64,000 bases of DNA. Origin: Candidatus Woesearchaeota archaeon. GTDB lineage: Archaea > Nanobdellota > Nanobdellia > Woesearchaeales > GW2011-AR9. Shown here in pieces: positions 6,429 through 50,336 of this stretch (positions are counted from its first letter, which is position 1; every line of letters starts with the position of its first letter). Under the pieces are notes generated by a model. It was not told the DNA's origin. It made no database searches and saw nothing but the letters and a program-made list of their open reading frames with translations. Position numbers and translations under genes: made by a program. The DNA is taken from positions 1 to 64,000 of the forward strand of contig JABHQW010000008.1 in assembly GCA_018696595.1 (NCBI GenBank), in the 5' to 3' direction.

Positions 6429-7424
6429 ATGGTTAACGTAGCAATCAATGGTTTTGGAAGAATCGGTAGAATGGTTCTTCGAGCAGGATGGAACGATAAA
6501 AAAATAAATTTTGTCGCTATTAACGATTTAACTGATACAAAAAACTTAGCATATTTATTACAATATGATTCTGTTCACGGAAAATTTGATCAAAAAATTT
6601 CTTATACAAAAGATTCATTAATTATTGGAAAGAAAAAAATAAAAATATATGCAGAAAAAGACCCTGCAAGTTTACCTTGGAAAAAACATAAAGTAGATGT
6701 TGTTGTAGAAAGCACAGGTAGATTTAGAACTAATGAATTATGTCAGTTACATCTTAAAGCAGGAGCAAAAAAAGTTCTTCTTTCCGCACCTTGTAAAGGT
6801 AATGACATTCCCATGTATGTTTATGGGGTCAATCATAAAAAATACAAAAAATCTGAAAAAATTATTTCTAACGCTTCTTGTACAACTAATGGCCTTGCAC
6901 CTTTAATCAAAGTAATCAATGACAAATTCGGAATTAAAAAAGGATTAATGACAACAGTGCACGCTTACACAAATGATCAAAGATTACTAGATTTGCCCCA
7001 CAAAGACTTGAGAAGAGGAAGAGCAGCTGCATTAAATATTATTCCAACAACTACAGGGGCAGCAAAAGCAATTGGGAAAATAATTCCTGAATTGGATGGC
7101 AAACTGAATGGTATGGCAATTAGGGTCCCAGTCGCAGATGGTTCTTTAATTGATTTGACGTTAGAACTTAAGAAAAAAGTTAATGGTTGCGGAATTGTAA
7201 ATGACGCTTTAATCAAAGCTTCTAAAAAAGAAATGAAAGGAATAATTGAACATAGTGATTTCCCTTTAGTCAGCAGTGATATCATTGGAAACCCCCATTC
7301 TTCCGTATTTGAATCAGATTGTACTTTAGAAATGGAAGGAAACTTAGTAAAAATTATTGCTTGGTATGATAACGAATGGGGCTATAGTAATAGGATGATA
7401 GACATGATAAAATTCATATCATGA
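6429..7424 (+). CDS. gap: Glyceraldehyde-3-phosphate dehydrogenase, bacterial type I
   Basis: NGFGRIGR, ASCTTN and WYDNEWGYS motifs. Confidence 0.95.
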   Translation: MVNVAINGFGRIGRMVLRAGWNDKKINFVAINDLTDTKNLAYLLQYDSVHGKFDQKISYTKDSLIIGKKKIKIYAEKDPASLPWKKHKVDVVVESTGRFRTNELCQLHLKAGAKKVLLSAPCKGNDIPMYVYGVNHKKYKKSEKIISNASCTTNGLAPLIKVINDKFGIKKGLMTTVHAYTNDQRLLDLPHKDLRRGRAAALNIIPTTTGAAKAIGKIIPELDGKLNGMAIRVPVADGSLIDLTLELKKKVNGCGIVNDALIKASKKEMKGIIEHSDFPLVSSDIIGNPHSSVFESDCTLEMEGNLVKIIAWYDNEWGYSNRMIDMIKFIS

Positions 7425-7433
7425 ATCAATTAA

Positions 7434-9329
7434 TCATTCAAAAAATACTTTCATAACACCTTTAACTTTAGTTACTCTCTTAACTAATTCTTTTAGATGT
7501 TCTAAATCTCGAGGTACAACCAAGAAATTACATTGAGCATGATCTAAATCAATCAGTTTTGCTTTCGCTTCTTTAACTTCAAAACCAGCATTAGCAATTG
7601 TGTGTAACAAATCTGCTAATAACCCACTCCGCTCATGAGCATTAACAAAAAACTTTATTTTTTGTCCAAAAGAATCTTTCCAATTAACTGGCACCCAACG
7701 ATTTTGTTCTTTCAAAGCAAGTCGACAATCATCTTTATGTACTGAAACAATTCTTCTTTTGGTTAGTATCCCCGCGATGTCCTCTCCAGGTAAAGCTTGA
7801 CAACATTTAGCTAAAACACAAGAAGCATTGGGAAACTCTTCAGATTCAGCCAGAAGCCCTTGTTCTTCTCGCATAATCGGTTTAAAAGAACGGAAATGAA
7901 AAGCAGGTAAGTCTTCATAATTCTTTAATGATTTTCTAATTTTTTGTCTGGCCTTGGCAGATTTAACAATCTTAATCCAACTTCTTCTTGGACGTTGATT
8001 TTTGTTAGTAACAACCTCAACCACATCACCATGAGCAACTTCTTTCTTTAAAGAAACAAACTTGCCGTTAATTCTTCCACCAACAGTTTTATTTCCAACT
8101 TCTTCATGAACTAAATAAGCAAAGTCCAAAATAGTTGCACCTATTGGCAATTCTTTTATGTCTCCTTTAGGAGTATAACAATAAATAATATCTCCAAAAA
8201 CATCAACCTTTGCTGCTTCTAAAAATTCTTTGTTACCACCCTCTTTCTGTAAATCCAAAATACCCTTCAACCAAGAGATTTTTTTTTCAAATGATTGTTC
8301 TGAAGACATTCCTTTGTAACGCCAATGGGCAGCTATTCCTTCTTCAGCCACTTCATTCATTTCAGGAGTCCTAATTTGTACTTCGGCGATTCTCCCATTA
8401 GAAAGTTTTAGACCCGTATGAATTGAACGATAAAGGTTTGGTTTAGGGTTCGCAATATAATCTTTTAACCTTCCTTGAAGAGGATCAAATACTTCATGCA
8501 ATAAACCTAATACAGAATAACAATCCTTTTCATCGGGAACAATTATCCTAATGCCAAATAAATCAAATAGTTTGTCCAATCGAACTTTCTTTTTCTTAAT
8601 CTTACGATAAATGCTATAAACATGTTTAGGCCTACCTTTAATCTCAATAACTTTAATCCTTTCACCAATAACTTTCTTAATCACGCGAATTGCTTCGACC
8701 ACATTTTTTTGTCTTTGTTCATTAGACTCTTTTAAGAAATTAGTAATTTCTCTATACTTACGAGGATTAATAATTTTAAATGACAATTCTTCTAACTCCA
8801 CCTTAATTTTCTCCAATCCTAAACGATAAGCCAGAGGGGCATAAATTTCTAAGACTTCATGTGCAATTCTTTCTTGTTCTTCTTTAGGTAACTGACCAAT
8901 TGTCCTGAGATTGTCTAATTTATTTGCTAACTTAATTAAAATTACACGCATATCTGTCAAAGCAGTAATTAAGATTCTTCTTAACACTTCTGCTTCGAGA
9001 TTGTTATTCTTTTGTTTGATCTCCCGGATCTCTTCAACTTCTTTAATTAAAGAAAAAACTTCAGAACCAAATAAATCCTTGATCTTATTTTTAGTGTCCT
9101 CATTTAAATGACCATGCAATAGTCCCGCAAGAACAACTTCTATTGCAGAACTGTTTTCTGCCAAGATATTAGCTACTCGTAAATTATGTTCAAAGAAAGA
9201 ATCACCAGAAATCCTTTTTTTTCCAGTAAGATCAGAACTAATTAATGTTATCGCTTGATTAAACTTTTCAATAGCTTCTTTAGTGTACTGATTATTATCA
9301 CATAAAAATAAAAATTCCTTAACTTTCAT
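7434..9329 (-). CDS. relA: Long RelA/SpoT homologue: degenerate HD, (p)ppGpp synthetase, TGS, ZFD/CC and ACT domains
   Basis: GRPKHVYSIYRK, DLFGIRII, KDYIANPKPNLYRSIHT, EVQIRT, GIAAHWRYK, YTPKGD...DFAYLVH (TGS), AKCC..PGEDI, ERSGLLADL (ACT). Confidence 0.92.
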   Translation of the reverse strand: MKVKEFLFLCDNNQYTKEAIEKFNQAITLISSDLTGKKRISGDSFFEHNLRVANILAENSSAIEVVLAGLLHGHLNEDTKNKIKDLFGSEVFSLIKEVEEIREIKQKNNNLEAEVLRRILITALTDMRVILIKLANKLDNLRTIGQLPKEEQERIAHEVLEIYAPLAYRLGLEKIKVELEELSFKIINPRKYREITNFLKESNEQRQKNVVEAIRVIKKVIGERIKVIEIKGRPKHVYSIYRKIKKKKVRLDKLFDLFGIRIIVPDEKDCYSVLGLLHEVFDPLQGRLKDYIANPKPNLYRSIHTGLKLSNGRIAEVQIRTPEMNEVAEEGIAAHWRYKGMSSEQSFEKKISWLKGILDLQKEGGNKEFLEAAKVDVFGDIIYCYTPKGDIKELPIGATILDFAYLVHEEVGNKTVGGRINGKFVSLKKEVAHGDVVEVVTNKNQRPRRSWIKIVKSAKARQKIRKSLKNYEDLPAFHFRSFKPIMREEQGLLAESEEFPNASCVLAKCCQALPGEDIAGILTKRRIVSVHKDDCRLALKEQNRWVPVNWKDSFGQKIKFFVNAHERSGLLADLLHTIANAGFEVKEAKAKLIDLDHAQCNFLVVPRDLEHLKELVKRVTKVKGVMKVFFE

Positions 9330-9368
9330 AAAGAAACTAAAAGAAAGCCTTATTTAAAAATTCTCTGT

Positions 9369-10628
9369 CTATTTTCGACTTAACAGTTCTTCAATTCTTA
9401 ATAACTGGTTATACTTAGCGGTTCTTTCTCCGCGACAAGGTGCTCCTGCTTTAATTTGTCCGCAATTAATACCTACAGCTAAGTCAGCAATAAAAGTGTC
9501 TTCAGTTTCCCCACTACGATGAGAGACCATAACCTTCCAACCATTATTATGGGCTAACCGAACTGCATTAAGAGCTTCAGTTAATGAACCAATCTGGTTA
9601 ACCTTTAACAATAAACAATCACAACTACCCTCACGAATTGCTTCTTCAATTCTGTCAACATTTGTTACAGTTAAGTCATCCCCAACAATTTGAACATTCA
9701 GTTTATTCTCCGCTAATTTCTTTTTTAATTCAGCAAAAGCAATAAAGTCTTCTTGATCAAAAGGATCTTCAATTGAAACAAGAGGATATTTCTTTGCCAA
9801 TTGAATGTAATGATTAGTTAATTGTTGTTTACTTAACTTTCTACCATCAACCAAATATTTTCCTCTCTTAAAAAATTCTGAAGCTGCACAATCCATAGCA
9901 ATATCCATTTTCCCAAAATAACCAGCATCTTTAATCGCTTTCATAAGAATCTTTAAAGCATCAGTAGATTTTTGCAATCTTTCAGGTGCGAAACCTCCTT
10001 CATCACCAACATTAGTTGATCCTTTCCCATATTTCTTATGCAAATCCTTCTTAAGAATGTGATAAACTTCGCCAGCTGCTTGTAAATTCTGTTTAAATGT
10101 TTTAAATTTAGGTGCAATCATAAATTCCTGAAAACTAAGTTTATTGTCGGCATGTTTGCCACCATTAATAACATTAAAGAATGGCCTTGGTAAAGATATA
10201 GGAAATTCTTTTTTATAGGGGCTTAATAACTTAGCAATGTGTTCAAACAGAAATAACTTTTTGTTGTTCGCTCCCGCTCTTGCACAAGCTAAAGAAACAG
10301 CAAGAATTGCATTAGCACCAAATCTACTTTTGTCATCAGTCCGATCTTTTTTAATCATCAGCAAATCGATTTCTTTTTGTTTAGTACAATCTTTACCAAC
10401 AATAAATTTAGAAATCTTATCTACATTACGAACAGCTTTTTGTACTCCTTTTCCTAAATAACGTTTAGTTTTATCTCTTAATTCTAAAGCTTCATGAATT
10501 CCAGTAGATGCACCAGAAGGAACAGAAGCACTATAAATCATATTTTTGGCAATAAGGTCTACTTCAATAGTGGGATTGCCCCGACTATCTAAAATTTCTC
10601 GTGCCTTTATTTTTTTTATTTTTGACAT
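9369..10628 (-). CDS. eno: Enolase
   Basis: DSRGNPT, VPSGASTGIHEA, GDEGGFAP, LLKVNQIGSLTE and SHRSGETED motifs. Confidence 0.97.
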   Translation of the reverse strand: MSKIKKIKAREILDSRGNPTIEVDLIAKNMIYSASVPSGASTGIHEALELRDKTKRYLGKGVQKAVRNVDKISKFIVGKDCTKQKEIDLLMIKKDRTDDKSRFGANAILAVSLACARAGANNKKLFLFEHIAKLLSPYKKEFPISLPRPFFNVINGGKHADNKLSFQEFMIAPKFKTFKQNLQAAGEVYHILKKDLHKKYGKGSTNVGDEGGFAPERLQKSTDALKILMKAIKDAGYFGKMDIAMDCAASEFFKRGKYLVDGRKLSKQQLTNHYIQLAKKYPLVSIEDPFDQEDFIAFAELKKKLAENKLNVQIVGDDLTVTNVDRIEEAIREGSCDCLLLKVNQIGSLTEALNAVRLAHNNGWKVMVSHRSGETEDTFIADLAVGINCGQIKAGAPCRGERTAKYNQLLRIEELLSRK

Positions 10629-10643
10629 CTTATTAACCTCTTT

Positions 10644-13253
10644 TTATTTTCCGGAAAGTGAAAAGTGCATAAAATCTTTTTGGTTTCCAGACCACTCCCC
10701 ACCCCATTTCCAACCAAGATTAACTAAATTTTGATATGCCGGTGAACTTTTAGTAATTGTTCCGGGAAATGATTGATCTCTTAATTTATTCTTACTTCCG
10801 CCATGGCTTAATGAACATTTACTTGAATCCCAAACATTACAATTATCATACAACCCATTATACTCTCGATTAATATCTACTGCCAAACCATAAGGATGTT
10901 GTCCAAACTTTGTTTTAGAACTATAAGTTCTTCCTTCTCTGAAACCCACAACATCAAAAATATTAAAACCAGAATTACAAATATTTTGAATAGCATTTTT
11001 TATTTGTGCTTCATATTTCCAACAGATTTTAAATGAAAGACTTTGCCCATTACAATTAACATTAATTTCTTTTTGATCTTCCCTACAAAGGGTACAACCA
11101 GAACCACTAGGATCAAATACTTCTCCACCGATTTCGGAGTACTTTTTCTGTTTAAGTCCATTATCTTCATAACTACAAGTTTGTGGAGTAACACGATTAG
11201 AATTTAGAGTATTACCAAAATTAGTATTAACACCAGAACTACTTCCAGCAGTTGGATCACAAAATTGTCCTTGTAATTGTTGAATCAAGTTTGTTGGATT
11301 CTGAATATCTTGGTGTTTTTTTGTTAAAGAATCAACTTTACAGTCAGTTGAATAACCATTATTAGGTTCCCACTTAATGTTTTCATCTTTCATGCCAGAA
11401 TACACTTCTAAATGTAACATGGCATCTTTACCATTCGTCCCACAATAACTAGCGACACCGATCTTTTGACCTGGAACAATTGAATCTCCTGGATTAACAG
11501 CAACTTTATCATTATCTATCTCGCCATAATTAATTGTTCTTTTCAATTGAGGATTGTAAACATAAACTGCGGACACTTTTTTATTAATTCCTTGTGCACC
11601 CCAACCATCCTTACATTCGTAAAAATTTTTGACAGCAACAACGGTTCCAGCTTCCAAAGCAACAACAATTCCAGGGGGTTTATTGTAAATATCTATGCCA
11701 ACATGACACCTAGTATTATCATCACGAGGATTACCCCAATTACTACTAATTTTAGTAAAACTATCACTTGTTAAAGGAAAACATTGTCCGGGAGAAGATA
11801 AGGCTAAAATCCCCCCTGGATTACTAAGACTATGAGGAGTACCATAAGAGGGAGAAGACCCCGCAGAACCTTGTTGAATAGTATAATAAACTTTCTTAAT
11901 ATCTTGCCAACTCCAAGCGTTTGTTAAAGTTTTATCCCAAACTTTTCCAACACCTTCACTAGCAACAAAATTACTAACCTTCAACCAAGCTTCATCAATC
12001 TCTTCCTGTCTTTTAGGAAGACCTTTAGGAACTTCCTTATTTTGTCCGCCAGGGGCTTGTTTTTGATATGAAGTAGGGCTGTTTGCAATTGTACCTGAAG
12101 GAGTTTGAACATTTGTCTGCCCGAGAGTAATTGCACCATAAGCAGATGACCCAGAATAAGTCCAAGCCATAGACATTTTTCCAATATTTTTATGACCAAT
12201 ATCTAAAGGGACATAATTAACATTAGGGTGCCCAGGAACTTTAAGTACTTGACCCGTAACTGCTCCAGGAGTTGAAGATTTTTCTTTATCTTTCGTATTC
12301 CATTTAACATTCTCAGTATACCAACTAGCTACCTGAGCATCATATTGGGCACCTAATTGTTTTACAGTAAGAATTGCAAATTGTGTTGGCCGATGAGCAC
12401 CCCTTCTACTTGGATCTTGCACTAACATGTACATCTCGGCATTTGAATTGTATTGTAAATAATGTTCATAAACAAGCAAGGCAGACGGTTGTTCTTCAAA
12501 TGGACTACTAGAACTAAAACCCCACCCATAATCAGAATCTGAGAAAACTATTTTATTCACACCAATAGATTTCAACGCATTATTACTTTTACTTGGACGA
12601 GTAGCACCATGTCTTAATGCTGCACCACCAGCACTATGTCCAACCATAGAAACATAACCAACATCAACCCCTGGATTAAAATTTTGTTTCAAAATATTTA
12701 TTGCATCTTGGTGTAATTGAATCAAATTAGAATCGCCATCCTTCCAAATATCATTTTGATTACTTCTTTTAGCAGTTCCTGCAGACCAGGGCATTTCCGG
12801 AAAAACAATAACGAAGTTTCTTCCTGAACCAGACAATATTTTAGCTTGAGGTGCTACTCTTAAATTCATGTCATTATAACTATCACCATTCCCGTGATAA
12901 GAGAAACCCGTTAAACCATGAAAAAAGTACATCACCTCGATTTTTTTACTGAAGTCAGTAGAACAAGGAACAAAAATAATTGTTTCCCTACCTGTGTCTA
13001 CACGATCATCATTATCATTAGGTCCATTAGATTGTAATTTCCCAATCCAACTTTTTCCCCCCAGGGTTTGTCCACTAATAGCAGCCTTCCAACCATTAAC
13101 AATTTCTTGTCGAGGATTATTCGATTCAATAACTTCATGATTTGTATTTGTACAAGTTGTCGCTCCGAAAGGAACACTTGCAGCTAAAGAGAATGAAGAA
13201 AAGAGAACTAATAGGAAAAATGACAATAAAATAATTATTTTTATTTTCTTCAT
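10644..13253 (-). CDS. Secreted multidomain protein: alpha/beta-hydrolase, shared linker, M23 peptidase, M15 peptidase
   Basis: Signal peptide; FFHG...GHSAGG elbow; HVGID (M23 HxxxD) and MLHLE; C-terminal QHPYGLAVDIN and DFMHFS (M15 Zn motifs). Confidence 0.8.
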   Translation of the reverse strand: MKKIKIIILLSFFLLVLFSSFSLAASVPFGATTCTNTNHEVIESNNPRQEIVNGWKAAISGQTLGGKSWIGKLQSNGPNDNDDRVDTGRETIIFVPCSTDFSKKIEVMYFFHGLTGFSYHGNGDSYNDMNLRVAPQAKILSGSGRNFVIVFPEMPWSAGTAKRSNQNDIWKDGDSNLIQLHQDAINILKQNFNPGVDVGYVSMVGHSAGGAALRHGATRPSKSNNALKSIGVNKIVFSDSDYGWGFSSSSPFEEQPSALLVYEHYLQYNSNAEMYMLVQDPSRRGAHRPTQFAILTVKQLGAQYDAQVASWYTENVKWNTKDKEKSSTPGAVTGQVLKVPGHPNVNYVPLDIGHKNIGKMSMAWTYSGSSAYGAITLGQTNVQTPSGTIANSPTSYQKQAPGGQNKEVPKGLPKRQEEIDEAWLKVSNFVASEGVGKVWDKTLTNAWSWQDIKKVYYTIQQGSAGSSPSYGTPHSLSNPGGILALSSPGQCFPLTSDSFTKISSNWGNPRDDNTRCHVGIDIYNKPPGIVVALEAGTVVAVKNFYECKDGWGAQGINKKVSAVYVYNPQLKRTINYGEIDNDKVAVNPGDSIVPGQKIGVASYCGTNGKDAMLHLEVYSGMKDENIKWEPNNGYSTDCKVDSLTKKHQDIQNPTNLIQQLQGQFCDPTAGSSSGVNTNFGNTLNSNRVTPQTCSYEDNGLKQKKYSEIGGEVFDPSGSGCTLCREDQKEINVNCNGQSLSFKICWKYEAQIKNAIQNICNSGFNIFDVVGFREGRTYSSKTKFGQHPYGLAVDINREYNGLYDNCNVWDSSKCSLSHGGSKNKLRDQSFPGTITKSSPAYQNLVNLGWKWGGEWSGNQKDFMHFSLSGK
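11815..12035. repeat. 221-bp direct repeat copy 1 (shared internal linker of two secreted enzymes)
   Basis: Aligns without gaps to 15802-16022. The 68-bp stretch 11953-12020 is identical to 15940-16007. Confidence 0.95.
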
Positions 13254-13284
13254 TTCTTTCCCAAATTAAATTATTTTCTAAATA

Positions 13285-14109
13285 TTATCTTTCTTTATAA
13301 TAAATAAAGTAAATTGCTAAAATCACAACTAACATTATCGCTAAAACAATAGCAAGATAAATTTGCCAAGCAGTTTTGGTTTGCTTTGTTTCTTGTATTT
13401 CTGATGATTGATATGTCCCCACAAAAAGTGTTTCTTCTGGGACATCTTGTCCATCAAAAGGATCAGTACCAACTTGCTTTTCATATGTGTCACTGTATTG
13501 GTCATGATCAGTATCTGCCCAACCAGGCAGGATATCTTCATTTAGACTGTTTGAATTGCCTCTCAACTCTGCTAAGTTACGGTAACCATCACTATCTAAA
13601 TCTATCCACCACGGCGTGGATTTAGGATTTTCTTTGTCTGTGTTAGAATTATGTTCTTCATAATTATAAAACCCATCTTCATCGGAATCTACACAATCAA
13701 TATCATAATCACCCAAATAATCAAAACATTCTTCTTCATACAATATCACACAAATATTGTCGTTTTGCACACACCAGTTTTCCTCATCTATTTCCCCATA
13801 ATATTCAATAGTATTAGGATTTTCAGTTGGGTCTTCTGGGTCAGTACCAATTACCAGCTCTTCTTCGTTACCAAACCAATCACCATCAGTGTCCCATTGT
13901 GATAAAAAAATATTACAGGCATCTAAATTATTAGCGAGAAGATAGTTTTCAAATCCTGTATCTAGTTCTTGCAATTCGTAACATAGTGCCAAAGTAAGTG
14001 TATCTTCACTAATTTCTGACCCAGATAGTGCCGTTACTAAATAAATCGAACAAAATAAAAATACAAGTACAATAATAGTTTGTTTTGTTTTCTTTTGTTT
14101 TGTTTTCAT
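13285..14109 (-). CDS. Membrane-anchored acidic protein with DxDxDG calcium-binding (thrombospondin type 3-like) repeats
   Basis: N-terminal signal; DTDGDW, DSDEDG, DLDSDG, DTDHDQ repeats each followed by E..GTDP-like segments; C-terminal TM helix. Confidence 0.7.
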   Translation of the reverse strand: MKTKQKKTKQTIIVLVFLFCSIYLVTALSGSEISEDTLTLALCYELQELDTGFENYLLANNLDACNIFLSQWDTDGDWFGNEEELVIGTDPEDPTENPNTIEYYGEIDEENWCVQNDNICVILYEEECFDYLGDYDIDCVDSDEDGFYNYEEHNSNTDKENPKSTPWWIDLDSDGYRNLAELRGNSNSLNEDILPGWADTDHDQYSDTYEKQVGTDPFDGQDVPEETLFVGTYQSSEIQETKQTKTAWQIYLAIVLAIMLVVILAIYFIYYKER

Positions 14110-14121
14110 TTGTTTTGTTTT
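14077..14121 (-). repeat. 3 x 15-bp tandem repeat (AAAACAAAACAAA-NN) spanning the start codon of 13285-14109
   Basis: Units AAAACAAAACAAATG, AAAACAAAACAAAAG, AAAACAAAACAAACT. Confidence 0.8.
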
Positions 14122-14153
14122 GATTAATTAGTGAATTAACTCCTAATTATTGG

Positions 14154-17100
14154 TTAAATATTAAATTGATCCAAAGTATTTCCATTTTCATCCTTAGCCA
14201 CACAATGTAAATTCGCATCGCAACGATAATACCCTCTTGTTTGTAAACAAAATACAGACCCTTGAGTAGGTAAACAGGATCTTGGATTTAGCATCGCACC
14301 AACTTCTAAATGTGTTACCCCCCCTCTAATTACTCTAGCTAATCCATGAGTGTGTCCAGCAAAAGCTAATACTTTATTCCCTTTATTTTTATGTTCCACT
14401 AATAATTCATGCCACTTTCTTGCGCAACCATTACTATGACTCCCAGTAATCTGTGGATAAGCAGGTTTATGATATCCCAACATAATATCTTTGTTAGGGT
14501 TCGCATTCAACTGTTGTTTTAAAAATTGAGTTTCGAAATTACAATTGCCCTCATTATTTAGAATGATTGCTATTAAATTAGAAGTTATAGGCACCACATG
14601 ATGACCACCATTAGACATTTGATTACGGATGTAAGGAAATTCATCACCTAAATTATCGGCAATTGCTTGGTGGCCTTTTCCTTTATAAGTACTCTTGCTT
14701 TCGTGATTCCCCACAATGGCATAAAGAGTCCCTTGCTTAATTAAATCACGTTCATAATTTAAAAACTTTTTCCAATGGTCTTTTCTACCACCATCATCAA
14801 CAAAATCTCCAACATGAAACAATGAAGGGTTGGCACATTCTTTCTTTATACTTTCAAGTGCTATTTTTTGTTTAAGCGTAGGGTTACGAGTATCACCATA
14901 TAATATCAAACAATTTGGATCTTTTACTTGTCCCTGGCCCACGTAAGTTGTTTGAGAAGGTGCTGTTGAACCAGAATTTTTAGCACTTGGACCAGTTGAA
15001 TAACCACTTTGAGATGCTTCCTTACATTTTGAAAAATAAACATAACGTTCTGGTCTATCACCTCCCACATATCTTTTAAAAACTTCTTTAATTTGTTCAG
15101 GAGTCTGTGCATTTTTAGCACCTTTTTTAATCAATTCATCAACCATAGCAACAATATTCTTATGAGGGTCAAAAAGATCACAAAGAGTATAAGTTATTCC
15201 CCCTTGCTCAATCGTAGTGGCCCCAAAATTAGAAGTTAATTGACCCAAACCAATCCCATATCGATAATTAGGATCAAATTTATTCCCATTATTATCACAA
15301 AAATGGGCTTTTGCTAAATTTGGATTGCTGGTAGGCACATTCAATGAATAAGTAGAAGTATCAAAAATTCCTTTAATACAAGGATCTTGTATTGCCTGAA
15401 TACATTGTGCTCTTAATTGTTGTCGTTCACTACTTGATAAACTCCTTCGATTCTCAACCAAATTAACACAACTAGAATGCTTATTTGCTTCAGCATTACA
15501 ATCATTCATCAATTTGCTAGTGCTTGCTTCTGAAAATGGACCATACTGATTTTGACATGCAGGAGATTTATCTAAAAGTAATCTTCTTCTTGCTGAAACA
15601 GTACATCTACCAACATTAGCATCATTACCTACTCTCCACCATTGACCACTAGATTCTTGTTTCACTGTTACCAAACCAAAACAAGGATCAATCCCTTTCT
15701 GTTTAGACACTTCTACAACCTCAGGCAAATAAGTAGTATCTTTATATCCACTAAGACCAGCAAAACTGCCAGATCCTGTTGAGGATAAAGGAAGTGGCCC
15801 GCCAGGATTACTTAAGCTAAATGGAGTCCCATAAGAGGGAGCAGAACCGATAGGAATTTGTTGAATGGTGTAATAAACTTTCTTAATGTCTTGCCAACTC
15901 CAAATGTTAGTCAAAGTTTTATCCCACACTTGATTAACCCCTTCACTAGCAACAAAATTACTAACCTTCAACCAAGCTTCATCAATCTCTTCCTGTCTTT
16001 TAGGAAGTCCCTTAGGAACCTCTTGAGTGGTAAATTGTTGTTGCTGTTGTTGAGAGTAAGGTTGTGCAAATTGCTGATTATTACTAGCCAACTTAGAACC
16101 AGGAGTTATTCCTTGTTGATTATTTGTCTGCTGTTTGATACAACTTGCAATCATCCCATTATGATCATTCTCTGTTACTTGTCCTTCTATCGGAGCAACT
16201 AATTCGACACTAAAAGGATTAAAATTTGCAACACTCTCTTTAGGAGCAAAATAATAATAAGCGTCAGTATTGTAAGCATAACGTAAACAATAAGCAACTG
16301 CCTTAACATGACGATGATCAGAAACAACTAACACTTTTTCTCCTGGTTGAATATAACCTTTTGAGTTTTGTAAGTTAGCAGCAGTGTCTCCAGACTTAGT
16401 TTCTTTAATGACGGCAATCTTAGAATGTATATTTTGGTCAAGTGTTAACAAATACGTTTCCATTTCTGTAGCTTCATTACAACCACCACTACAAGTCTGA
16501 CAGGTTGCATCTTTATCTGTTTCAACACAACCACCAGTTAAAATTAATTTTTTAAAATTATTTCCTACACTAATCAAATCATAACCTGCTCTTACTCGAT
16601 TTTCCATCTCTGAACGCAGATGTCTTCCAAGAATCATCATCGTATCAAACTCTTGCAAATTTGCCGAATTGGTTAAATAAGTACTTGTAGCTTGTTCTGT
16701 TGTTATTTGTCCCCCAAACACTTCGCTAAAAACTTTATTTGACATTGCTTGATATCCAGCAGTATTTGGATGAACATTGCCACAAGAAGAAGCATAATTT
16801 GAATTCATACAAGGTTCTTGACTAACAAGAAGTTGATAAAAATCTACCACACCACCAATATTCCCAATTTCTTTTTGTGTTCTTATCCAGACATTAATTT
16901 CTTTAACTACATTATTCTTTTCTACACTATTTTGTTTGTTATATGGGGGAATTGTTCCAGCTATGACCTTAATATTGTTATTTCTTGCTAAAAAATAGAT
17001 CTGTTCTAAATTTGCAATCACATCAGGGGCAGACTTGCCCCCACTAATATCATTAGTCCCACCAAGAACAATTAAATGAGTATATCCTTTATTAAGAATC

Positions 17101-17348
17101 TCTGATTTAAGTTTAGTTAACATCCAGGGAGTCCATTTCCCACTAACAGCATAATTAATGGGTTGATTTCCACAAGATTGAATAAATTGAGGACCCCAAC
17201 CAACAGTAATAGAATCACCTAATAAAGCAATTTTATTACTATTACAAGAATCAGCTAAGACAGAGAAAGATAACCAAGAAATAAATAAAAAAATAACAAC
17301 TAACAAAAACAATAATTTACCTTTCCCTCTTTTTCTGTCCCCAAACAT
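14154..17348 (-). CDS. Secreted multidomain protein: SGNH hydrolase, DUF218-like, shared linker, SLT/lysozyme-like, metallophosphoesterase
   Basis: GDSI/GTND/HPN (SGNH); GG...EA.EM..YL...ETKSGDTAAN...VSDHRH (DUF218-like); QESSG...GLGQL...LFDPHKNI (SLT-like); GDT/GDFVD/GNHE/GHTH (calcineurin-like). Confidence 0.8.
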   Translation of the reverse strand: MFGDRKRGKGKLLFLLVVIFLFISWLSFSVLADSCNSNKIALLGDSITVGWGPQFIQSCGNQPINYAVSGKWTPWMLTKLKSEILNKGYTHLIVLGGTNDISGGKSAPDVIANLEQIYFLARNNNIKVIAGTIPPYNKQNSVEKNNVVKEINVWIRTQKEIGNIGGVVDFYQLLVSQEPCMNSNYASSCGNVHPNTAGYQAMSNKVFSEVFGGQITTEQATSTYLTNSANLQEFDTMMILGRHLRSEMENRVRAGYDLISVGNNFKKLILTGGCVETDKDATCQTCSGGCNEATEMETYLLTLDQNIHSKIAVIKETKSGDTAANLQNSKGYIQPGEKVLVVSDHRHVKAVAYCLRYAYNTDAYYYFAPKESVANFNPFSVELVAPIEGQVTENDHNGMIASCIKQQTNNQQGITPGSKLASNNQQFAQPYSQQQQQQFTTQEVPKGLPKRQEEIDEAWLKVSNFVASEGVNQVWDKTLTNIWSWQDIKKVYYTIQQIPIGSAPSYGTPFSLSNPGGPLPLSSTGSGSFAGLSGYKDTTYLPEVVEVSKQKGIDPCFGLVTVKQESSGQWWRVGNDANVGRCTVSARRRLLLDKSPACQNQYGPFSEASTSKLMNDCNAEANKHSSCVNLVENRRSLSSSERQQLRAQCIQAIQDPCIKGIFDTSTYSLNVPTSNPNLAKAHFCDNNGNKFDPNYRYGIGLGQLTSNFGATTIEQGGITYTLCDLFDPHKNIVAMVDELIKKGAKNAQTPEQIKEVFKRYVGGDRPERYVYFSKCKEASQSGYSTGPSAKNSGSTAPSQTTYVGQGQVKDPNCLILYGDTRNPTLKQKIALESIKKECANPSLFHVGDFVDDGGRKDHWKKFLNYERDLIKQGTLYAIVGNHESKSTYKGKGHQAIADNLGDEFPYIRNQMSNGGHHVVPITSNLIAIILNNEGNCNFETQFLKQQLNANPNKDIMLGYHKPAYPQITGSHSNGCARKWHELLVEHKNKGNKVLAFAGHTHGLARVIRGGVTHLEVGAMLNPRSCLPTQGSVFCLQTRGYYRCDANLHCVAKDENGNTLDQFNI
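15802..16022. repeat. 221-bp direct repeat copy 2
   Basis: Encodes EVPKGLPKRQEEIDEAWLKVSNFVASEG...SLSNPGG, as in copy 1. Confidence 0.95.
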
Positions 17349-34643: not shown

Positions 34644-35636
34644 ATGAAACAATACGATGTAATTGGTTTAGGAAATACTTTAATGGATTTCTTAATAGAA
34701 GTGGATGATGATAAACTAATTGAATTTGATTTAAAGAAAGGAGAGATGCATCTTGTTGATGAAGAGAAAGCCAAATTGGTTTTAGAAAAGATTAATCAAC
34801 ATCAGTTAGAAATTGAAACAATTCCGGGTGGAAGTTCTGCCAACACTTTGAAAGGAATTGCTCTTCTGGGAGGAAAAGCTATTCTCTGCGGAAAAGTTGG
34901 TGATGATCCGCATGGAGAAGTTTATGTTCAACAAATAGAAAATCATGGCGTTTCTTCAAGAATTAATAAACACCAAAATATTACTGGACACGCAGTAACA
35001 TTTATCACTCCCGATTCTGAAAGAACTTTTTCTGTCCATCTTGGAGCAGCTTTAGAATTGTACAAAGAAGACATCTTAGAAGAAGACATAAAACAAAGTA
35101 AAGTATTACATTTAGAAGGTTACCAAATTGAAGGGCCAACAAAAGAGACTATTATGCACGCCATTGAGTTGGCTAAAAAACATAACACTTTGGTTTCAAT
35201 TGATTTAGCAGACCCTGGTTTGATTAGAAGAAATAAAGAATTTTTGAAAGATTTAGTGATGAATCACGCAGATATTGTTTTTGTTAACGAAAAAGAAGCG
35301 GAAGAATTTACTGGTTTACCTCCAGAAGAAGCACTGAATGAAATTGCCAAACATACAAAAGTTGCTGTAGTTAAATTAGGAAAAAAAGGTTCTTTAATTA
35401 GTGCAGACGGAATTATTACAATGATTGATGCCCATTTAGTAGAAGCAGTTGACACAACTGGCGCAGGAGATTCTTATGCTGCTGGTTTCTTATATGGATA
35501 CACTAACGGGTTAAACATGGAACAATCTGGGAAGTTAGGTTCATTATTAGCAGCAAAAGTTGTGCAAGAGAAAGGTGTAGGATTCAAAGATATTAATGTG
35601 AATGAATTAAAGCAAATGGTGAATAACAATGACTAA
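34644..35636 (+). CDS. PfkB family kinase, adenosine kinase-like
   Basis: [17 protein letters not shown] and [12 protein letters not shown] motifs; operonic with ahcY. Confidence 0.85.
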
Positions 35637-36963
35637 AATCGGAATCATTGGTGGATCTGGATTAGACAATCCAGAGATTTTACAGGAAGCCCAAGATAAA
35701 GAAGTTGAAACAAAATATGGAAAACCAAGTTCACCATTAAAAGTGGGAAAGATTAATGGTGCTGATGTTGTTTTGTTAGCAAGACATGGAAGAAAACACG
35801 AAATCCCACCAACACAAGTTAATAATCAAGCCAATATTCAATCGTTGAAAGATGAAGGGTGCACACACATTTTAGCCACAACAGCATGCGGTAGTTTAAG
35901 AGAAGAGATTGGAAGAGGAGACTTTGTTATTTTAGACCAATTCATTGATTTTACAAGACATAGAAAAATTACATTTCATGAAGAATTTGTTAATGGAGAA
36001 ATTAAGCATACACCAATGGCCAAACCATTTAACAATAAGTTAAGAAAAGTATTAAACAAAACTGCAACAGATCTTGGATTAAAATGTCACAGTAAAGGCA
36101 CAGTGATTACAATTGAAGGCCCAAGATTTTCTACAAAAGCTGAATCGCATATGTTTAGATCATGGAATGCAGATGTTATTAACATGAGCATTGCACCAGA
36201 AGTTATCCTAGCTAATGAAATAGGAATCCCTTATGCAGCGGTTGCAATGTCCACAGATTATGATTGTTGGAAAGAAGAAGAGGAAGCTGTTACTTGGGAA
36301 GCTGTTCTAAAAGTATTTAAAGAAAATGTTAGTAAAGTAATGGAGTTATTAGTTAATGCAATACAAAAAATAAACTTTTGCCCAGGATTCCAATCAGGAG
36401 ATTGTTGTTCAACCACTATTGAAGAAGAGGAAGAAGAAACTTTTGATTTAAAATCAACCATAAGAACAATCCCTAACTGGCCTAAAGAAGGAATCATGTT
36501 CCGTGATATTACAACACTAATTGAAAACCCAAAAGCATTTTCTTATTGTATTGAAAAGTTTAAAGAGAAATATTCTGATTGTCAAATTGATAAAATTGCT
36601 GGTATTGAAGCCAGAGGGTTTATTTTCGGTGCCGCTTTAGCAAAAGATTTAGGATTACCTTTTGTTTTAATTCGAAAGAAGGGAAAATTACCAGGAGAAG
36701 TTGTTTCTCAAGAATATGAGTTAGAATATGGGACAGATAAAATTGAAATGCATATTGATTCTATTTCTGCTGGAGAAAAAGTTTTACTAATTGACGATTT
36801 ACTTGCTACTGGTGGAACTGCAAAAGCTTCTTGTCAACTAATTGAAAAAGTAGGTGGTAAAATTGTCAACATTGCTTTTGTTATCGATCTTCCAGATTTA
36901 AAAGGTGCAGAGAAACTCAAGAATTATAATTTATTTAAGTTAGTTAATTTTGAAGGAGAATAA
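35629..36963 (+). CDS. mtnP-apt: Fused methylthioadenosine phosphorylase (MtnP) and adenine phosphoribosyltransferase (Apt)
   Basis: N-half GIIGGSG, EGPRFST, MSTDYD. C-half [36 protein letters not shown]. One continuous ORF. Confidence 0.92.
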
Positions 36964-48102: not shown

Positions 48103-48837
48103 ATGAGAAACATAAAGAAAATTCTAATTGAACAAAAAACGGGGAAAAAACATTTTGTTAAAGATCTAGATGACAATTATCATACTTCCTCTGGAGTTAT
48201 CTTAAAAAAAGATTTAAAATCAAAGAAGAATATTATCAAGTCCGACAAAGGAAAAACTTTCTTTATGATTGAACCAACATTCCCAGATTTATGGGAATCA
48301 CTTAGCAGAGGCCCACAACTAATGTTACCAAAAGATATTGGGATGGTTATGGCTAAAACTGGAATTAACCATAATTCAAAAATCGTCGATGCCGGTGGTG
48401 GAACAGGAAGTTTATGTTTATCTCTAGCAAATATGTGTAAAGAAATTACTGTTTACGAAATTAATCCCGAACATTATGATGTTGTTGCTAAAAACATTAA
48501 ATTGTTTGGTTTTAAAAACATCAAATTAAAACACGATAGTATTTACAAAGGGATTAAAGAGAAAGATTTAGATTTAATCACTTTAGATCTTCCGGAACCA
48601 TGGCAAGTTATTGAACATGCAGAAAAATCCTTAAAACAAGGAGCACATTTAGTTGTTTATCTTCCAAATCTTAATCAAGTAAAAATGTTTATCGATTCTT
48701 GTAGAAGAAGCAATATCAAAGTCACAGAAACATTAGAACTTATTGAGCGTAAATGGAAAATCGAAGACAGGATCATGCGTCCAGAGTTCCAAATGTTAGG
48801 ACATACTGGGTTCTTAATATTTTGTAGGAAATTCTAG
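48103..48837 (+). CDS. trmI: tRNA (adenine-57/58-N1) methyltransferase
   Basis: RGPQLMLPKD, DAGGGTGSL, LDLPEPW, RP...MLGHTGFL. Real start at 48103. Confidence 0.92.
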   Translation: MRNIKKILIEQKTGKKHFVKDLDDNYHTSSGVILKKDLKSKKNIIKSDKGKTFFMIEPTFPDLWESLSRGPQLMLPKDIGMVMAKTGINHNSKIVDAGGGTGSLCLSLANMCKEITVYEINPEHYDVVAKNIKLFGFKNIKLKHDSIYKGIKEKDLDLITLDLPEPWQVIEHAEKSLKQGAHLVVYLPNLNQVKMFIDSCRRSNIKVTETLELIERKWKIEDRIMRPEFQMLGHTGFLIFCRKF

Positions 48838-50336
48838 AGAATTAAATATCCATGATTCTTTTTAGCAAACTCTTTAGCCAGACCCAACTTAAATTTATTC
48901 TCTGCAAAGATAGTATAAAGAACCTCTCCTTTCTTAATTGGGTGATGAATTTTTTTATTAATATATAAACCTGAACCCTTATCTTGAGGCGCACCAGCAA
49001 TCCGGGCAATCTTAGAAATTATTTCGTTATCAATCTCTTTAACCCGACCAATTTTTGTTGACTTTACAATATGTTGATAATAACCAATTTTAACTTTTTT
49101 TTGTTTTCCTTGTAATTCAATAATTTCGTTCATCTTTTTAAGAGCTTTACCACTTTCAAGAATTTCATGTGCTACTTTCAAACCTTTACCTTTTCGGTAC
49201 TTGCCAGTCATTTCTAATAAAGCTCCCGCCATAATTAAGGCTTTATGTTTCAAATCCTGTGGAGCCAAAACATCATCTTTTAAAACTTGCATCACATCCA
49301 TAGCTTCTAAAAATGGACCAATCCCATTACCAATAGGTTGAGAACCATCGGTAATAACAACTTTAACATTCATTCCTAATTTTTTTCCAATCAACATAAA
49401 CATTTTCTTGAAATGTTTTGCTTGTTTCCAATTCTTTGCTTTAACCTGTTTACCCATAGGAATATCTATCAAAACATGATTAGCAGAAACAGAAAACTTC
49501 TTTGCCATAACTGAAGCCAAGAGCTGTCCTTCTGCGTCGATAGATAATGGATGTTCAACATCAATAATTTTGTCATCGGCTGGAGCCAGGTTCATGCTAC
49601 CACCATGAACAATACAGGACTTAGCTTTTTTTACAATTTGTTTGATCTTTTTTTCAGGAAGTTCAACCCTGGCAAGACATTCCATAGTATCTGCAGTTCC
49701 TGCCGGACTTGTAATTGCCCTACTAGAAGTTTTAGGAATTGTAAAACCAGCAGCTGCAACAATGGGGATAACAATCATAGTGGTTCTGTTTCCCGGAACC
49801 CCGCCAATGCAATGTTTATCTAATGTTATTCCCGAGAACTTTAATTTATACCCCGTCTTCACCATTGCTCGAGTCATATCAACAACTTCTTCATTGTTCC
49901 AGCCATTAACAAATCCCGCAGCTACAAAATAAGTTTTTTCAATATCGGTTAATCGATCATTTGTAATATCATCAATAATATGTAATAATTCTGTGTAAGA
50001 CAAACGTTTCCCATAAAGTTTACTTCTAATATGTTTTACAGATTCTGGTTTACCAGTAAATTTTAATTGTACAGCACTATCTTTTTTAACGTTTAATTTC
50101 TTAAGAACTTCTTCAAATAATCCAATTTTGCCTTCGGGAACGGCTTTTTGACTCTCAGAAATATCTAAGATGCAAACTTGTTCCCTGCCATCAGTTTTAA
50201 GTAGAATTCTATCCCCAGAATGTAAATCTAATTTGTGTGCGTCTTTAGTATTAAGAATGGCCACTAAAGTGCCGCCCGTAGCAATATCCATATCTTTAAC
50301 TTTAAACTTAAGACTGTGATTCTTCTTAGACTTCAT
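48834..50336 (-). CDS. deoA: AMP phosphorylase (thymidine phosphorylase family)
   Basis: DKHCIGGVPGN, KTSSRAITSPAGTAD, ASVMAKK and N-terminal archaeal extension. Confidence 0.92.
   Translation of the reverse strand: MKSKKNHSLKFKVKDMDIATGGTLVAILNTKDAHKLDLHSGDRILLKTDGREQVCILDISESQKAVPEGKIGLFEEVLKKLNVKKDSAVQLKFTGKPESVKHIRSKLYGKRLSYTELLHIIDDITNDRLTDIEKTYFVAAGFVNGWNNEEVVDMTRAMVKTGYKLKFSGITLDKHCIGGVPGNRTTMIVIPIVAAAGFTIPKTSSRAITSPAGTADTMECLARVELPEKKIKQIVKKAKSCIVHGGSMNLAPADDKIIDVEHPLSIDAEGQLLASVMAKKFSVSANHVLIDIPMGKQVKAKNWKQAKHFKKMFMLIGKKLGMNVKVVITDGSQPIGNGIGPFLEAMDVMQVLKDDVLAPQDLKHKALIMAGALLEMTGKYRKGKGLKVAHEILESGKALKKMNEIIELQGKQKKVKIGYYQHIVKSTKIGRVKEIDNEIISKIARIAGAPQDKGSGLYINKKIHHPIKKGEVLYTIFAENKFKLGLAKEFAKKNHGYLIL

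Follow-up and report, generated by a model that had tools for sequence, protein, structure and literature searches.

Can an archaeon possess a long RelA/SpoT homologue (RSH) that makes (p)ppGpp and leaves its removal to another protein? This question is raised by a gene, here called P0001, in a 64,000-nucleotide stretch of DNA (the window: positions 1 to 64,000 of contig JABHQW010000008.1, assembly GCA_018696595.1) from Candidatus Woesearchaeota archaeon, which an earlier note, made from the DNA letters, had described as a full-length and probably synthetase-only RSH. Our best reading, to which we assign a probability of roughly two in three, is that P0001 is a compact RelA-like synthetase in which the HD domain is a pseudo-hydrolase, and that alarmone degradation has been outsourced. 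The evidence that carries this reading is the clade-wide loss of hydrolase residues from an enzyme with an intact synthetase site, together with a second protein of the same genome, P0280, which has the fold and the complete catalytic set of an RSH hydrolase and which we consider the best candidate for the outsourced step.

Hydrolase, synthetase and sensor regions of P0001

The open reading frame of P0001 is intact and its ends coincide exactly with positions 7434-9329 of the minus strand. Its product contains an HD_4 match followed by a RelA_SpoT match, both far above the Pfam cut-offs, and its best relative of solved structure is B. subtilis Rel (6yxa; 402 bits, E = 3.5e-119), with mycobacterial Rel and E. 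coli RelA next. That P0001 is a long RSH of full length encoded by a DPANN archaeon was thus confirmed, as were the intact synthetase, TGS, CC/zinc-finger and ACT signatures, which are evident from Pfam or from invariant alignment columns. The C-terminal half comprises the TGS domain, the CCHC finger of the zinc-finger/ribosome-intersubunit (ZFD/RIS) domain and the ACT domain, with the alpha-helical (AH) domain cut to about one helix, so that four of the five elements of a long-RSH regulatory half are present; PF28438 (RelA_RIS) is carried by orthologues of P0001 in precomputed annotation. Residue H408 of the TGS motif DFAYLVH (residues 402-408) and the zinc-finger residues C509, C510, H531 and C535 are invariant in the archaeal and bacterial alignments.

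The hydrolase site was compared between 30 archaeal long RSHs with the canonical motif and 119 full-length members of the clade of P0001 (≥60% identity). In RelSeq we take this site to consist of H53, H77, D78, E81, D82 and D144. The hydrolase motif of P0001 reads LLHGHLNED (residues 70-78), and in the site as a whole H48 and H72 are kept, D73 is replaced by Gly, D136 by Asn and H139 by Asp. Some positions are shared by both sets: Arg39 and His48, invariant in the canonical enzymes, occur in 99% and 100% of the clade, respectively, His72, likewise invariant there, is found in 109 of the 119 clade members (92%), and Asn140 is invariant in both. In marked contrast, Asp73 (the Asp of the HD pair) is invariant in the canonical enzymes and is Gly in 100 of the 119; Asp136 (the second metal Asp), also invariant in the former, is never Asp in the clade (Asn in 79 and Thr in 23 of the 119); position 139, His in 29 of the 30 canonical enzymes, is Asp in 115 of the 119; and positions 76 and 77, the ED pair of the canonical enzymes (Glu in 30/30, Asp in 29/30), hold no conserved or majority acidic residue in the clade. 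Neither P0001 nor its clade therefore displays the H...HD...ED...D pattern of the bifunctional ([HS]) Rel hydrolase site. The degeneracy (D73G, ED unconserved, D136N), of which the earlier note had seen the changed HD motif, extends across these clade members and the whole family of the Genome Taxonomy Database (GTDB) to which the window belongs, and is not a one-off. The motif as it had been quoted, LLHGHLNE without a canonical ED, requires a correction of detail: the site is indeed degenerate, but P0001 does contain an E-D pair, E77-D78, which sits one residue out of register and, being unconserved even in a 92%-identical relative that has NNET there, is not to be taken for a catalytic pair that has been kept.

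Identity in the HD domain relative to that in the synthetase domain (SYNTH) was 0.79 in the clade of P0001 versus 0.93 in the intact-motif group, and the corresponding values for the TGS, ZFD and ACT domains of the clade were 0.9-1.0. Overall, the residue states suggest that the HD domain of P0001 is a pseudo-hydrolase kept as a scaffold beside a working synthetase and a sensor module, as in RelA. An alternative that we consider improbable is that P0001 is still bifunctional by means of a remodelled site (H48, H72, N136 and D139), in which case a separate hydrolase would be unneeded. The retention of H48 and H72 throughout or nearly throughout the clade, that of N140, R39, D126 and R128, the RLKD charge motif described below and, in particular, the newly conserved Asp139, which lies one helical turn past the lost Asp136, would all be compatible with such a site. 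However, all sampled canonical-motif archaeal and bacterial enzymes have the HD Asp and the ED pair, with few or no exceptions, and the clade has lost them; nothing conserved in the clade replaces these residues in that loop, and the family has acquired P0280 (see below), a separate protein in which no canonical residue is missing. In addition, mutation of an active-site Asp that is homologous to a residue of RelSeq is reported to abolish hydrolysis by a small hydrolase (Jimmy et al., 10.1101/575399).

The catalytic set of the synthetase is complete in P0001 (the Mg-binding Asp, the catalytic Glu of EVQIRT, the basic GRPKH/KD motifs and the stacking Tyr), and R233, K235, K243, D256, K296, Y300, H304, E316 and Q318 are invariant in the archaeal and bacterial alignments. 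On these residues P0001 is predicted to be of the [hS] type, that is, a pseudo-hydrolase with an active synthetase. We regard it as very unlikely that catalysis is irrelevant and that P0001 either persists as a tRNA- or ribosome-binding regulator for the sake of its C-terminal domains or is a relic in decay. Although the C-terminal domains of the clade are conserved as much as the synthetase, and we know of no alarmone target in archaea, SYNTH with TGS is the most conserved region (73% mean pairwise identity), all SYNTH catalytic residues are invariant, and full-length intact frames in 33 of the 35 genomes of the family are unlike the pattern left by a relic. Somewhat less remote, but still unlikely, is that the product is not (p)ppGpp but a compound such as (p)ppApp or pGpp, or a tRNA pyrophosphorylated at its 3' end, and that P0280 reverses that product. 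Some small RSH toxins pyrophosphorylate the tRNA 3' end, specificity is not readable from sequence, and the fold matches of P0280 include 7smg, which hydrolyses (p)ppApp, and Mesh1, for which NADPH is a further substrate; against this, P0001 keeps every residue conserved with the synthetase domains of bacterial Rel, RelA and SpoT, including the Y300 loop, and its catalytic half shares 40-45% identity with genuine Rel enzymes.

In bacteria the charge motif of the synthetase goes with hydrolase status: the RLKD type accompanies bifunctional Rel, not RelA, and ExDD is linked to monofunctional RelA. P0001 has RLKD and its clade RLKD or KLKD, and thus the ExDD of RelA is absent from these hydrolase-degenerate enzymes, whereas EFDD occurs in several archaeal enzymes with an intact HD site (L099, L100, L104, L106, L109 and L113, from other orders of the same class). 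The RxKD/ExDD motif therefore does not track hydrolase status in archaeal long RSHs, where its distribution is the reverse of the bacterial association.

The archaeal enzymes also differ from the bacterial ones in the AH domain. The segment between the end of the TGS domain (W451) and the zinc-finger Cys pair (C509) measures 59 residues (range 50-64) in 52 archaeal sequences and 136 residues (111-153) in 24 bacterial enzymes, so that archaeal long RSHs are ~77 residues shorter in this domain, all other segments being equal in length to the bacterial ones. What is missing is the body of the AH domain. An AlphaFold2 (AF2) model of P0001, in which the individual domains are confident (mean predicted local distance difference test score, pLDDT, 81), predicts a single helix (458-471) followed by a low-confidence linker. 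In RelA-ribosome structures the TGS domain sits at the tRNA 3' end and the zinc-finger/RRM region at the A-site finger, with the AH domain bridging the two. Since the archaeal enzymes lack most of this domain, docking of the bacterial type is not to be assumed; the invariance of the TGS His and of the CCHC finger nevertheless makes it plausible that P0001 senses the ribosome or tRNA.

P0280 as a candidate alarmone hydrolase

The earlier note held that a separate hydrolase would be needed and suggested a search of the genome for Mesh1 or a small alarmone hydrolase (SAH). A candidate for this hydrolase can be named. At Pfam thresholds P0001 was the only HD_4 or RelA_SpoT match in the host assembly (1.19 Mb, 8 contigs, 97% complete), and by this measure the search found nothing else; below threshold lies a divergent SAH-like protein with all catalytic residues, P0280, and the idea that there is no hydrolase anywhere in the genome was dropped. 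P0280 scores only 16.6 bits against HD_4, for which the cut-off is 27.2, and is for that reason invisible at the curated threshold.

P0280 belongs to a family of ~320 "hypothetical proteins" of ~390 aa from Woesearchaeota and Nanoarchaeota. Among 28 members, including a paralogue in the same genome, full conservation was seen at R57, H66, H91-D92, E95-E96, D190 and H193 and near-full conservation at N194; the catalytic set of SAH/Mesh1 (R, H, HD, E(D/E), D, N) is thus complete, on an HD fold of the RSH type. All 18 Protein Data Bank (PDB) matches of the family profile are RSH hydrolase domains, among them RelSeq (2e-6), SpoT, Lmo0812 and Mesh1 (6e-5), and hhalign relates P0280 to the long-RSH alignment with 97% probability. 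The AF2 model (pLDDT 90) leads to the same conclusion at the level of structure, as the top 33 Foldseek matches are Rel/SpoT hydrolase domains, Mesh1 and small alarmone hydrolases, with template modelling (TM) scores of up to 0.73 on the target and essentially no other fold matched. P0280 nevertheless falls short of the HD_4 threshold and of the small, single-domain (~180-200 aa) build by which SAH/Mesh1 proteins are recognised: it has EE in place of ED, an insertion of ~40 residues in the HD domain and a C-terminal extension of ~170 residues which is predicted to be all-helical and to end in a Cys cluster. For this extension Foldseek returned no match and a feature search of the ESM Atlas no lead (best score 0.77).

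P0280-like genes are present in 31 of the 35 genomes of the family, and only two weak hits were obtained in the 265 other genomes surveyed from the phylum. The three family genomes that have only the RSH gene also carry its degenerate HD type. Overall, P0280 is the best candidate for an outsourced alarmone hydrolase of P0001's family, as judged from its residues and modelled fold. Other proteins of the genome were less convincing in this role. Two generic HD proteins (G000:C6:57683-58240 and C4:72449-73066) are not of the RSH type, their best PDB matches being unrelated HD hydrolases or none, and Ppx/GppA had no match in the genome. Eight Nudix genes are distributed over contigs C1, C4, C6 and C8; none flanks the RSH gene at its locus, and one (L151:5531-5950, plus strand) is divergent to P0280.

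The architecture, residue states, conservation, tree grouping (see below), co-distribution and P0280 fold are observed; the enzymatic activities, the trigger and the downstream targets we infer. P0001 would move pyrophosphate from ATP to GDP or GTP, yielding (p)ppGpp, and, like RelA, would not degrade it. Gating of the synthetase most likely falls to its well-conserved TGS, zinc-finger and ACT domains, and uncharged tRNA, on or off the ribosome, would be the likeliest trigger, with a docking mode that would be unlike the bacterial one given the missing AH domain. Degradation would probably fall to the family-specific, stand-alone P0280 and its paralogue, and one of the eight Nudix hydrolases could contribute.

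Several observations weigh against this scheme. By the bacterial association described above, the RLKD motif would mark the synthetase of P0001 as that of a bifunctional enzyme; six of the 119 clade members retain Asp at position 73; and a metal site remodelled from H48, H72 and D139 may still allow residual metal binding or altered hydrolysis. Without the AH domain, activation by the ribosome might no longer be possible. As for the partner, co-occurrence of the two genes is imperfect (in the 35 family genomes both genes were found in 30, RSH only in 3, P0280-like only in 1 and neither in 1), and the co-distribution of dead RSH and P0280 is essentially one phylogenetic event, statistically weak and hence suggestive. 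Searches with P0280 as the query found no P0280-like gene in two deeper hydrolase-degenerate relatives (G121 and G048). The P0280 gene is unlinked to the RSH gene and has no consistent Nudix neighbour, and a linkage between Nudix and P0280 was rejected because the adjacency is absent in three relatives. Taken together with the evidence above, we still favour a compact RelA-like synthetase with outsourced degradation. Whether this amounts to a complete two-gene alarmone cycle that arose in Archaea, in which an AH-less RSH with a dead hydrolase is triggered by uncharged tRNA on the archaeal ribosome and is opposed by a P0280-type breaker with a novel C-terminal domain, is more speculative, and we put it forward as a tentative proposal that we consider less likely than not.

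Distribution, origin and genomic setting

The earlier note considered long RSHs rare in archaea. This did not hold for the present phylum: in an even sample of 301 high-quality genomes of the phylum, 135 contain a long RSH, and Li et al. (2021; PMC8407392) had already reported RelA/SpoT in 41.7% of Woesearchaeota and in other DPANN phyla, as bacterial transfers. That report is also the kind of prior description in Woesearchaeota which, as the earlier note had anticipated, reduces the novelty of the gene as such. A full-length orthologue of P0001 was present in 21 of 23 genomes of the window's GTDB family in one search and in 33 of 35 in the 301-genome survey. Most of the 50 archaeal long RSH genes that were fetched from outside or from the edge of this family keep LLHDxxED and KLADRLHNMRT, and these intact-motif enzymes are presumably bifunctional; hydrolase-degenerate forms were found in the clade of P0001 and in at least one other archaeal lineage.

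Two unrooted trees were built, in both of which the bacterial sequences were best matches only: a FastTree analysis of 177 sequences, 122 of them of bacterial length, and a short IQ-TREE search (LG+G4) of 76 sequences that included 24 named bacteria of many phyla. On the question of phylogeny, which the earlier note had raised as a check, a single branch divides all archaeal from all bacterial sequences (support 99 with FastTree and 100 with IQ-TREE), so that the archaeal sequences form one group apart from the bacteria sampled. In the IQ-TREE analysis the family of P0001 forms a clade (Shimodaira-Hasegawa-like approximate likelihood ratio test, SH-aLRT, 99) inside a slightly larger hydrolase-degenerate clade (support 96). 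P0001 does not group with the sampled proteobacterial sequences, as orthology with the RelA subfamily of Gamma- and Betaproteobacteria would imply; those sequences carry LLHD and look SpoT-like. Because the family of P0001 is nested in an archaeal group apart from bacteria, the loss of the hydrolase appears from these trees to be secondary, to have taken place inside Archaea and to be independent of that in proteobacterial RelA.

Three further observations concern the distribution of degenerate sites. A second degenerate group (L105, L112, L114 and L118, which come from a single family in a different order of the class) has LMHGILNKG and KLCDKIVNLRE; it lies outside the degenerate clade of P0001 (support 96), is joined to that clade by a weak branch (SH-aLRT 61) and is possibly a separate loss of the hydrolase. 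No P0280-like gene was found in the genomes of this group with P0280 as the query. One genome of P0001's own family (L016; G023:C13:2400-4700) has two long RSH genes, one of the hydrolase-degenerate type and the other (622 aa) with an intact LLHDVVEDT and a place in the tree among the copies of other families; this second copy may have arrived by transfer, have been kept as a paralogue or reflect faulty binning. Finally, a 58%-identical hydrolase-degenerate orthologue (L019; CAYIEX010000061.1) occurs in a metagenome-assembled genome labelled 'uncultured Methanosarcinales archaeon', which is probably a mis-binned or mis-labelled DPANN contig.

As RSHs are typically bacterial, and a gene near P0001 encodes peptidoglycan peptidase domains, we considered whether the contig is a bacterial contaminant or the gene a very recent bacterial import. 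We rejected this explanation, whose probability we regard as negligible. The same contig carries the archaeal markers TFB, GatD, PAC2 and TrmB, which lie in the window, GC content along it is even (0.29-0.38), close homologues of P0001 bear Woesearchaeota or Nanoarchaeota names, orthologues with conserved synteny occur in 33 of the 35 family genomes, and the fully supported branch of the IQ-TREE analysis sets the archaeal sequences apart from the named bacteria. Given its presence in nearly all family genomes, the gap synteny and the single family clade, P0001 is native to its host and belongs by vertical inheritance to a group of compact long RSHs found in archaea.

The gene lies between gap and eno, as the earlier note had stated (Table 1). 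The convergent GAPDH neighbour is also found in relatives whose RSHs are 64% and 61% identical to P0001, and the enolase-RSH adjacency is present in one relative and absent in another; we read the gap synteny as inherited gene order, without a functional tie to glycolysis. A TATA-like box upstream of the start codon suggests that the RSH gene may be transcribed from a promoter of its own, giving an mRNA with no leader or a very short one.

Table 1. Coordinates of the RSH gene, its domains and neighbours, and of the P0280 genes. Positions are those of the window, except that the P0280 genes are located by genome, contig and position, with the equivalent locus positions in brackets.
Feature	Location	Strand	Basis or remark
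Compact long RSH gene (P0001), 631 aa	7434..9329	-	Open reading frame list and translation, Pfam, 6yxa match
HD_4 domain (predicted pseudo-hydrolase), residues 34-172	8814..9230	-	Pfam, 116.6 bits, 1e-33
RelA_SpoT synthetase domain, residues 232-340	8310..8636	-	Pfam, 134.7 bits, 2e-39
TGS domain, residues 382-441	8007..8186	-	Pfam, 4e-18
AH domain remnant, residues 442-499	7833..8006	-	Segment lengths, AF2 model
ZFD/RIS domain, residues 500-552	7674..7832	-	Invariant CCHC; RelA_RIS on orthologues
ACT/RRM domain, residues 559-628	7446..7655	-	Pfam ACT_4, 6.9e-9; beta-alpha-beta-beta-alpha-beta in model
TATA-like box TTTTTAAATA	9351..9360	-	Ends 21 nt before ATG of RSH gene; read from sequence
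GAPDH gene	6429..7424	+	Convergent with RSH gene, stop codons 9 bp apart; context, synteny kept in family
Enolase gene	9369..10628	-	Upstream of RSH gene on same strand; context, outside the system
P0280, 395 aa	G000:C6:54718-55905 (= L141:171-1358)	-	RSH hydrolase fold, sub-threshold HD_4
P0280 paralogue	G000:C2:30919-31935 (= L152:3399-4571)	-	Same family

Other genes of the window deserve mention. Directly upstream of the enolase gene, positions 10644-17348 (minus strand) encode large secreted multi-enzyme proteins with M23 plus M15 peptidoglycan hydrolase, SGNH, DUF218 and metallophosphoesterase domains, which is odd in an archaeon. A nucleoside phosphorylase fused to a phosphoribosyltransferase is encoded at 35629-36963 (plus strand) and an AMP-phosphorylase-like protein (glycosyl transferase family 3) at 48834-50336 (minus strand); since such salvage enzymes are inhibited by (p)ppGpp in bacteria, they are possible targets here.

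Significance and comparison with known systems

The reference survey of RSHs recorded no long RSH in archaea (Atkinson et al. 2011; PMC3153485), and reviews from 2021 and 2023 still present archaea as devoid of (p)ppGpp signalling, no archaeon being reported to contain the alarmone (PMC8646023, PMC10249747). Our literature search found no paper describing hydrolase degeneration, AH deletion, an SAH-like family or partners in archaeal RSHs. The presence of RSH genes in this group was thus known before; new, as far as this search shows, are the asymmetry between the two catalytic sites, the build without an AH domain and the candidate for an outsourced hydrolase. The pair P0001/P0280 gives a way to ask whether any archaeon uses (p)ppGpp: both genes are small and expressible in E. 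coli relA/spoT, and ordinary assays could be used without culturing the archaeon. The AH-less archaeal clade is informative about the sensing of tRNA and ribosomes by the C-terminal half, the family-wide, independent loss of the hydrolase site is a natural experiment parallel to RelA, and P0280 is a candidate hydrolase that standard annotation leaves as hypothetical. If the tentative proposal of a two-gene cycle is correct, this cycle would parallel the proteobacterial RelA/SpoT division of labour, and with it (p)ppGpp signalling would be described for the first time in Archaea, where its targets would lie in transcription and translation.

Among known systems, bifunctional Rel of Bacillota and Actinomycetota (B. 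subtilis Rel 6yxa/8acu, S. equisimilis RelSeq 1vj7 and M. smegmatis Rel 8fr8) has the same domain order as P0001 and includes its closest bacterial sequences, with 40-45% identity over HD-SYNTH-TGS among the matches listed. It shares with P0001 the RxKD-type motif, the TGS His, the CCHC finger and the ACT domain, and P0001 differs from it in D73G, the unconserved ED, D136N, the ~77 AH residues that are gone and its place in the archaeal group. The nearest relatives of P0001 are the compact archaeal long RSHs with intact motifs from other families of the same order and class (36-44% identity). They share its length (~630-660 aa), the AH deletion and its side of the archaeal/bacterial split; unlike P0001, they keep LLHDxxED and KLADRLHNMRT, and their genomes are without the P0280 family.

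For P0280, the comparison is with SAH/Mesh1 (P. aeruginosa SAH 6yvc, C. glutamicum RelH 7qoc and human MESH1 5vxa), which have a similar fold (TM 0.6-0.73 on the target, Foldseek probability 1.00) and the same catalytic constellation, R...H...HD..E[ED]...D..HN, invariant in P0280. P0280 is unlike them in its sub-threshold HD_4 score, its EE, the insertion and the helical extension, and its restriction to one archaeal family.

E. coli RelA (5iqr, 5kpv; [hS]) is the system whose logic P0001 would be expected to follow, with a pseudo-hydrolase scaffold, a synthetase and a regulatory C-terminal half. P0001 is not a RelA orthologue: the loss took place independently in an archaeal clade, the charge motif is RLKD where RelA has ExDD, and there is no AH domain. 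The candidate partner differs too, being a 395-aa stand-alone HD-fold protein and not, as SpoT is, a long RSH paralogue; RelA leaves hydrolysis to SpoT, and P0001 perhaps leaves it to P0280.

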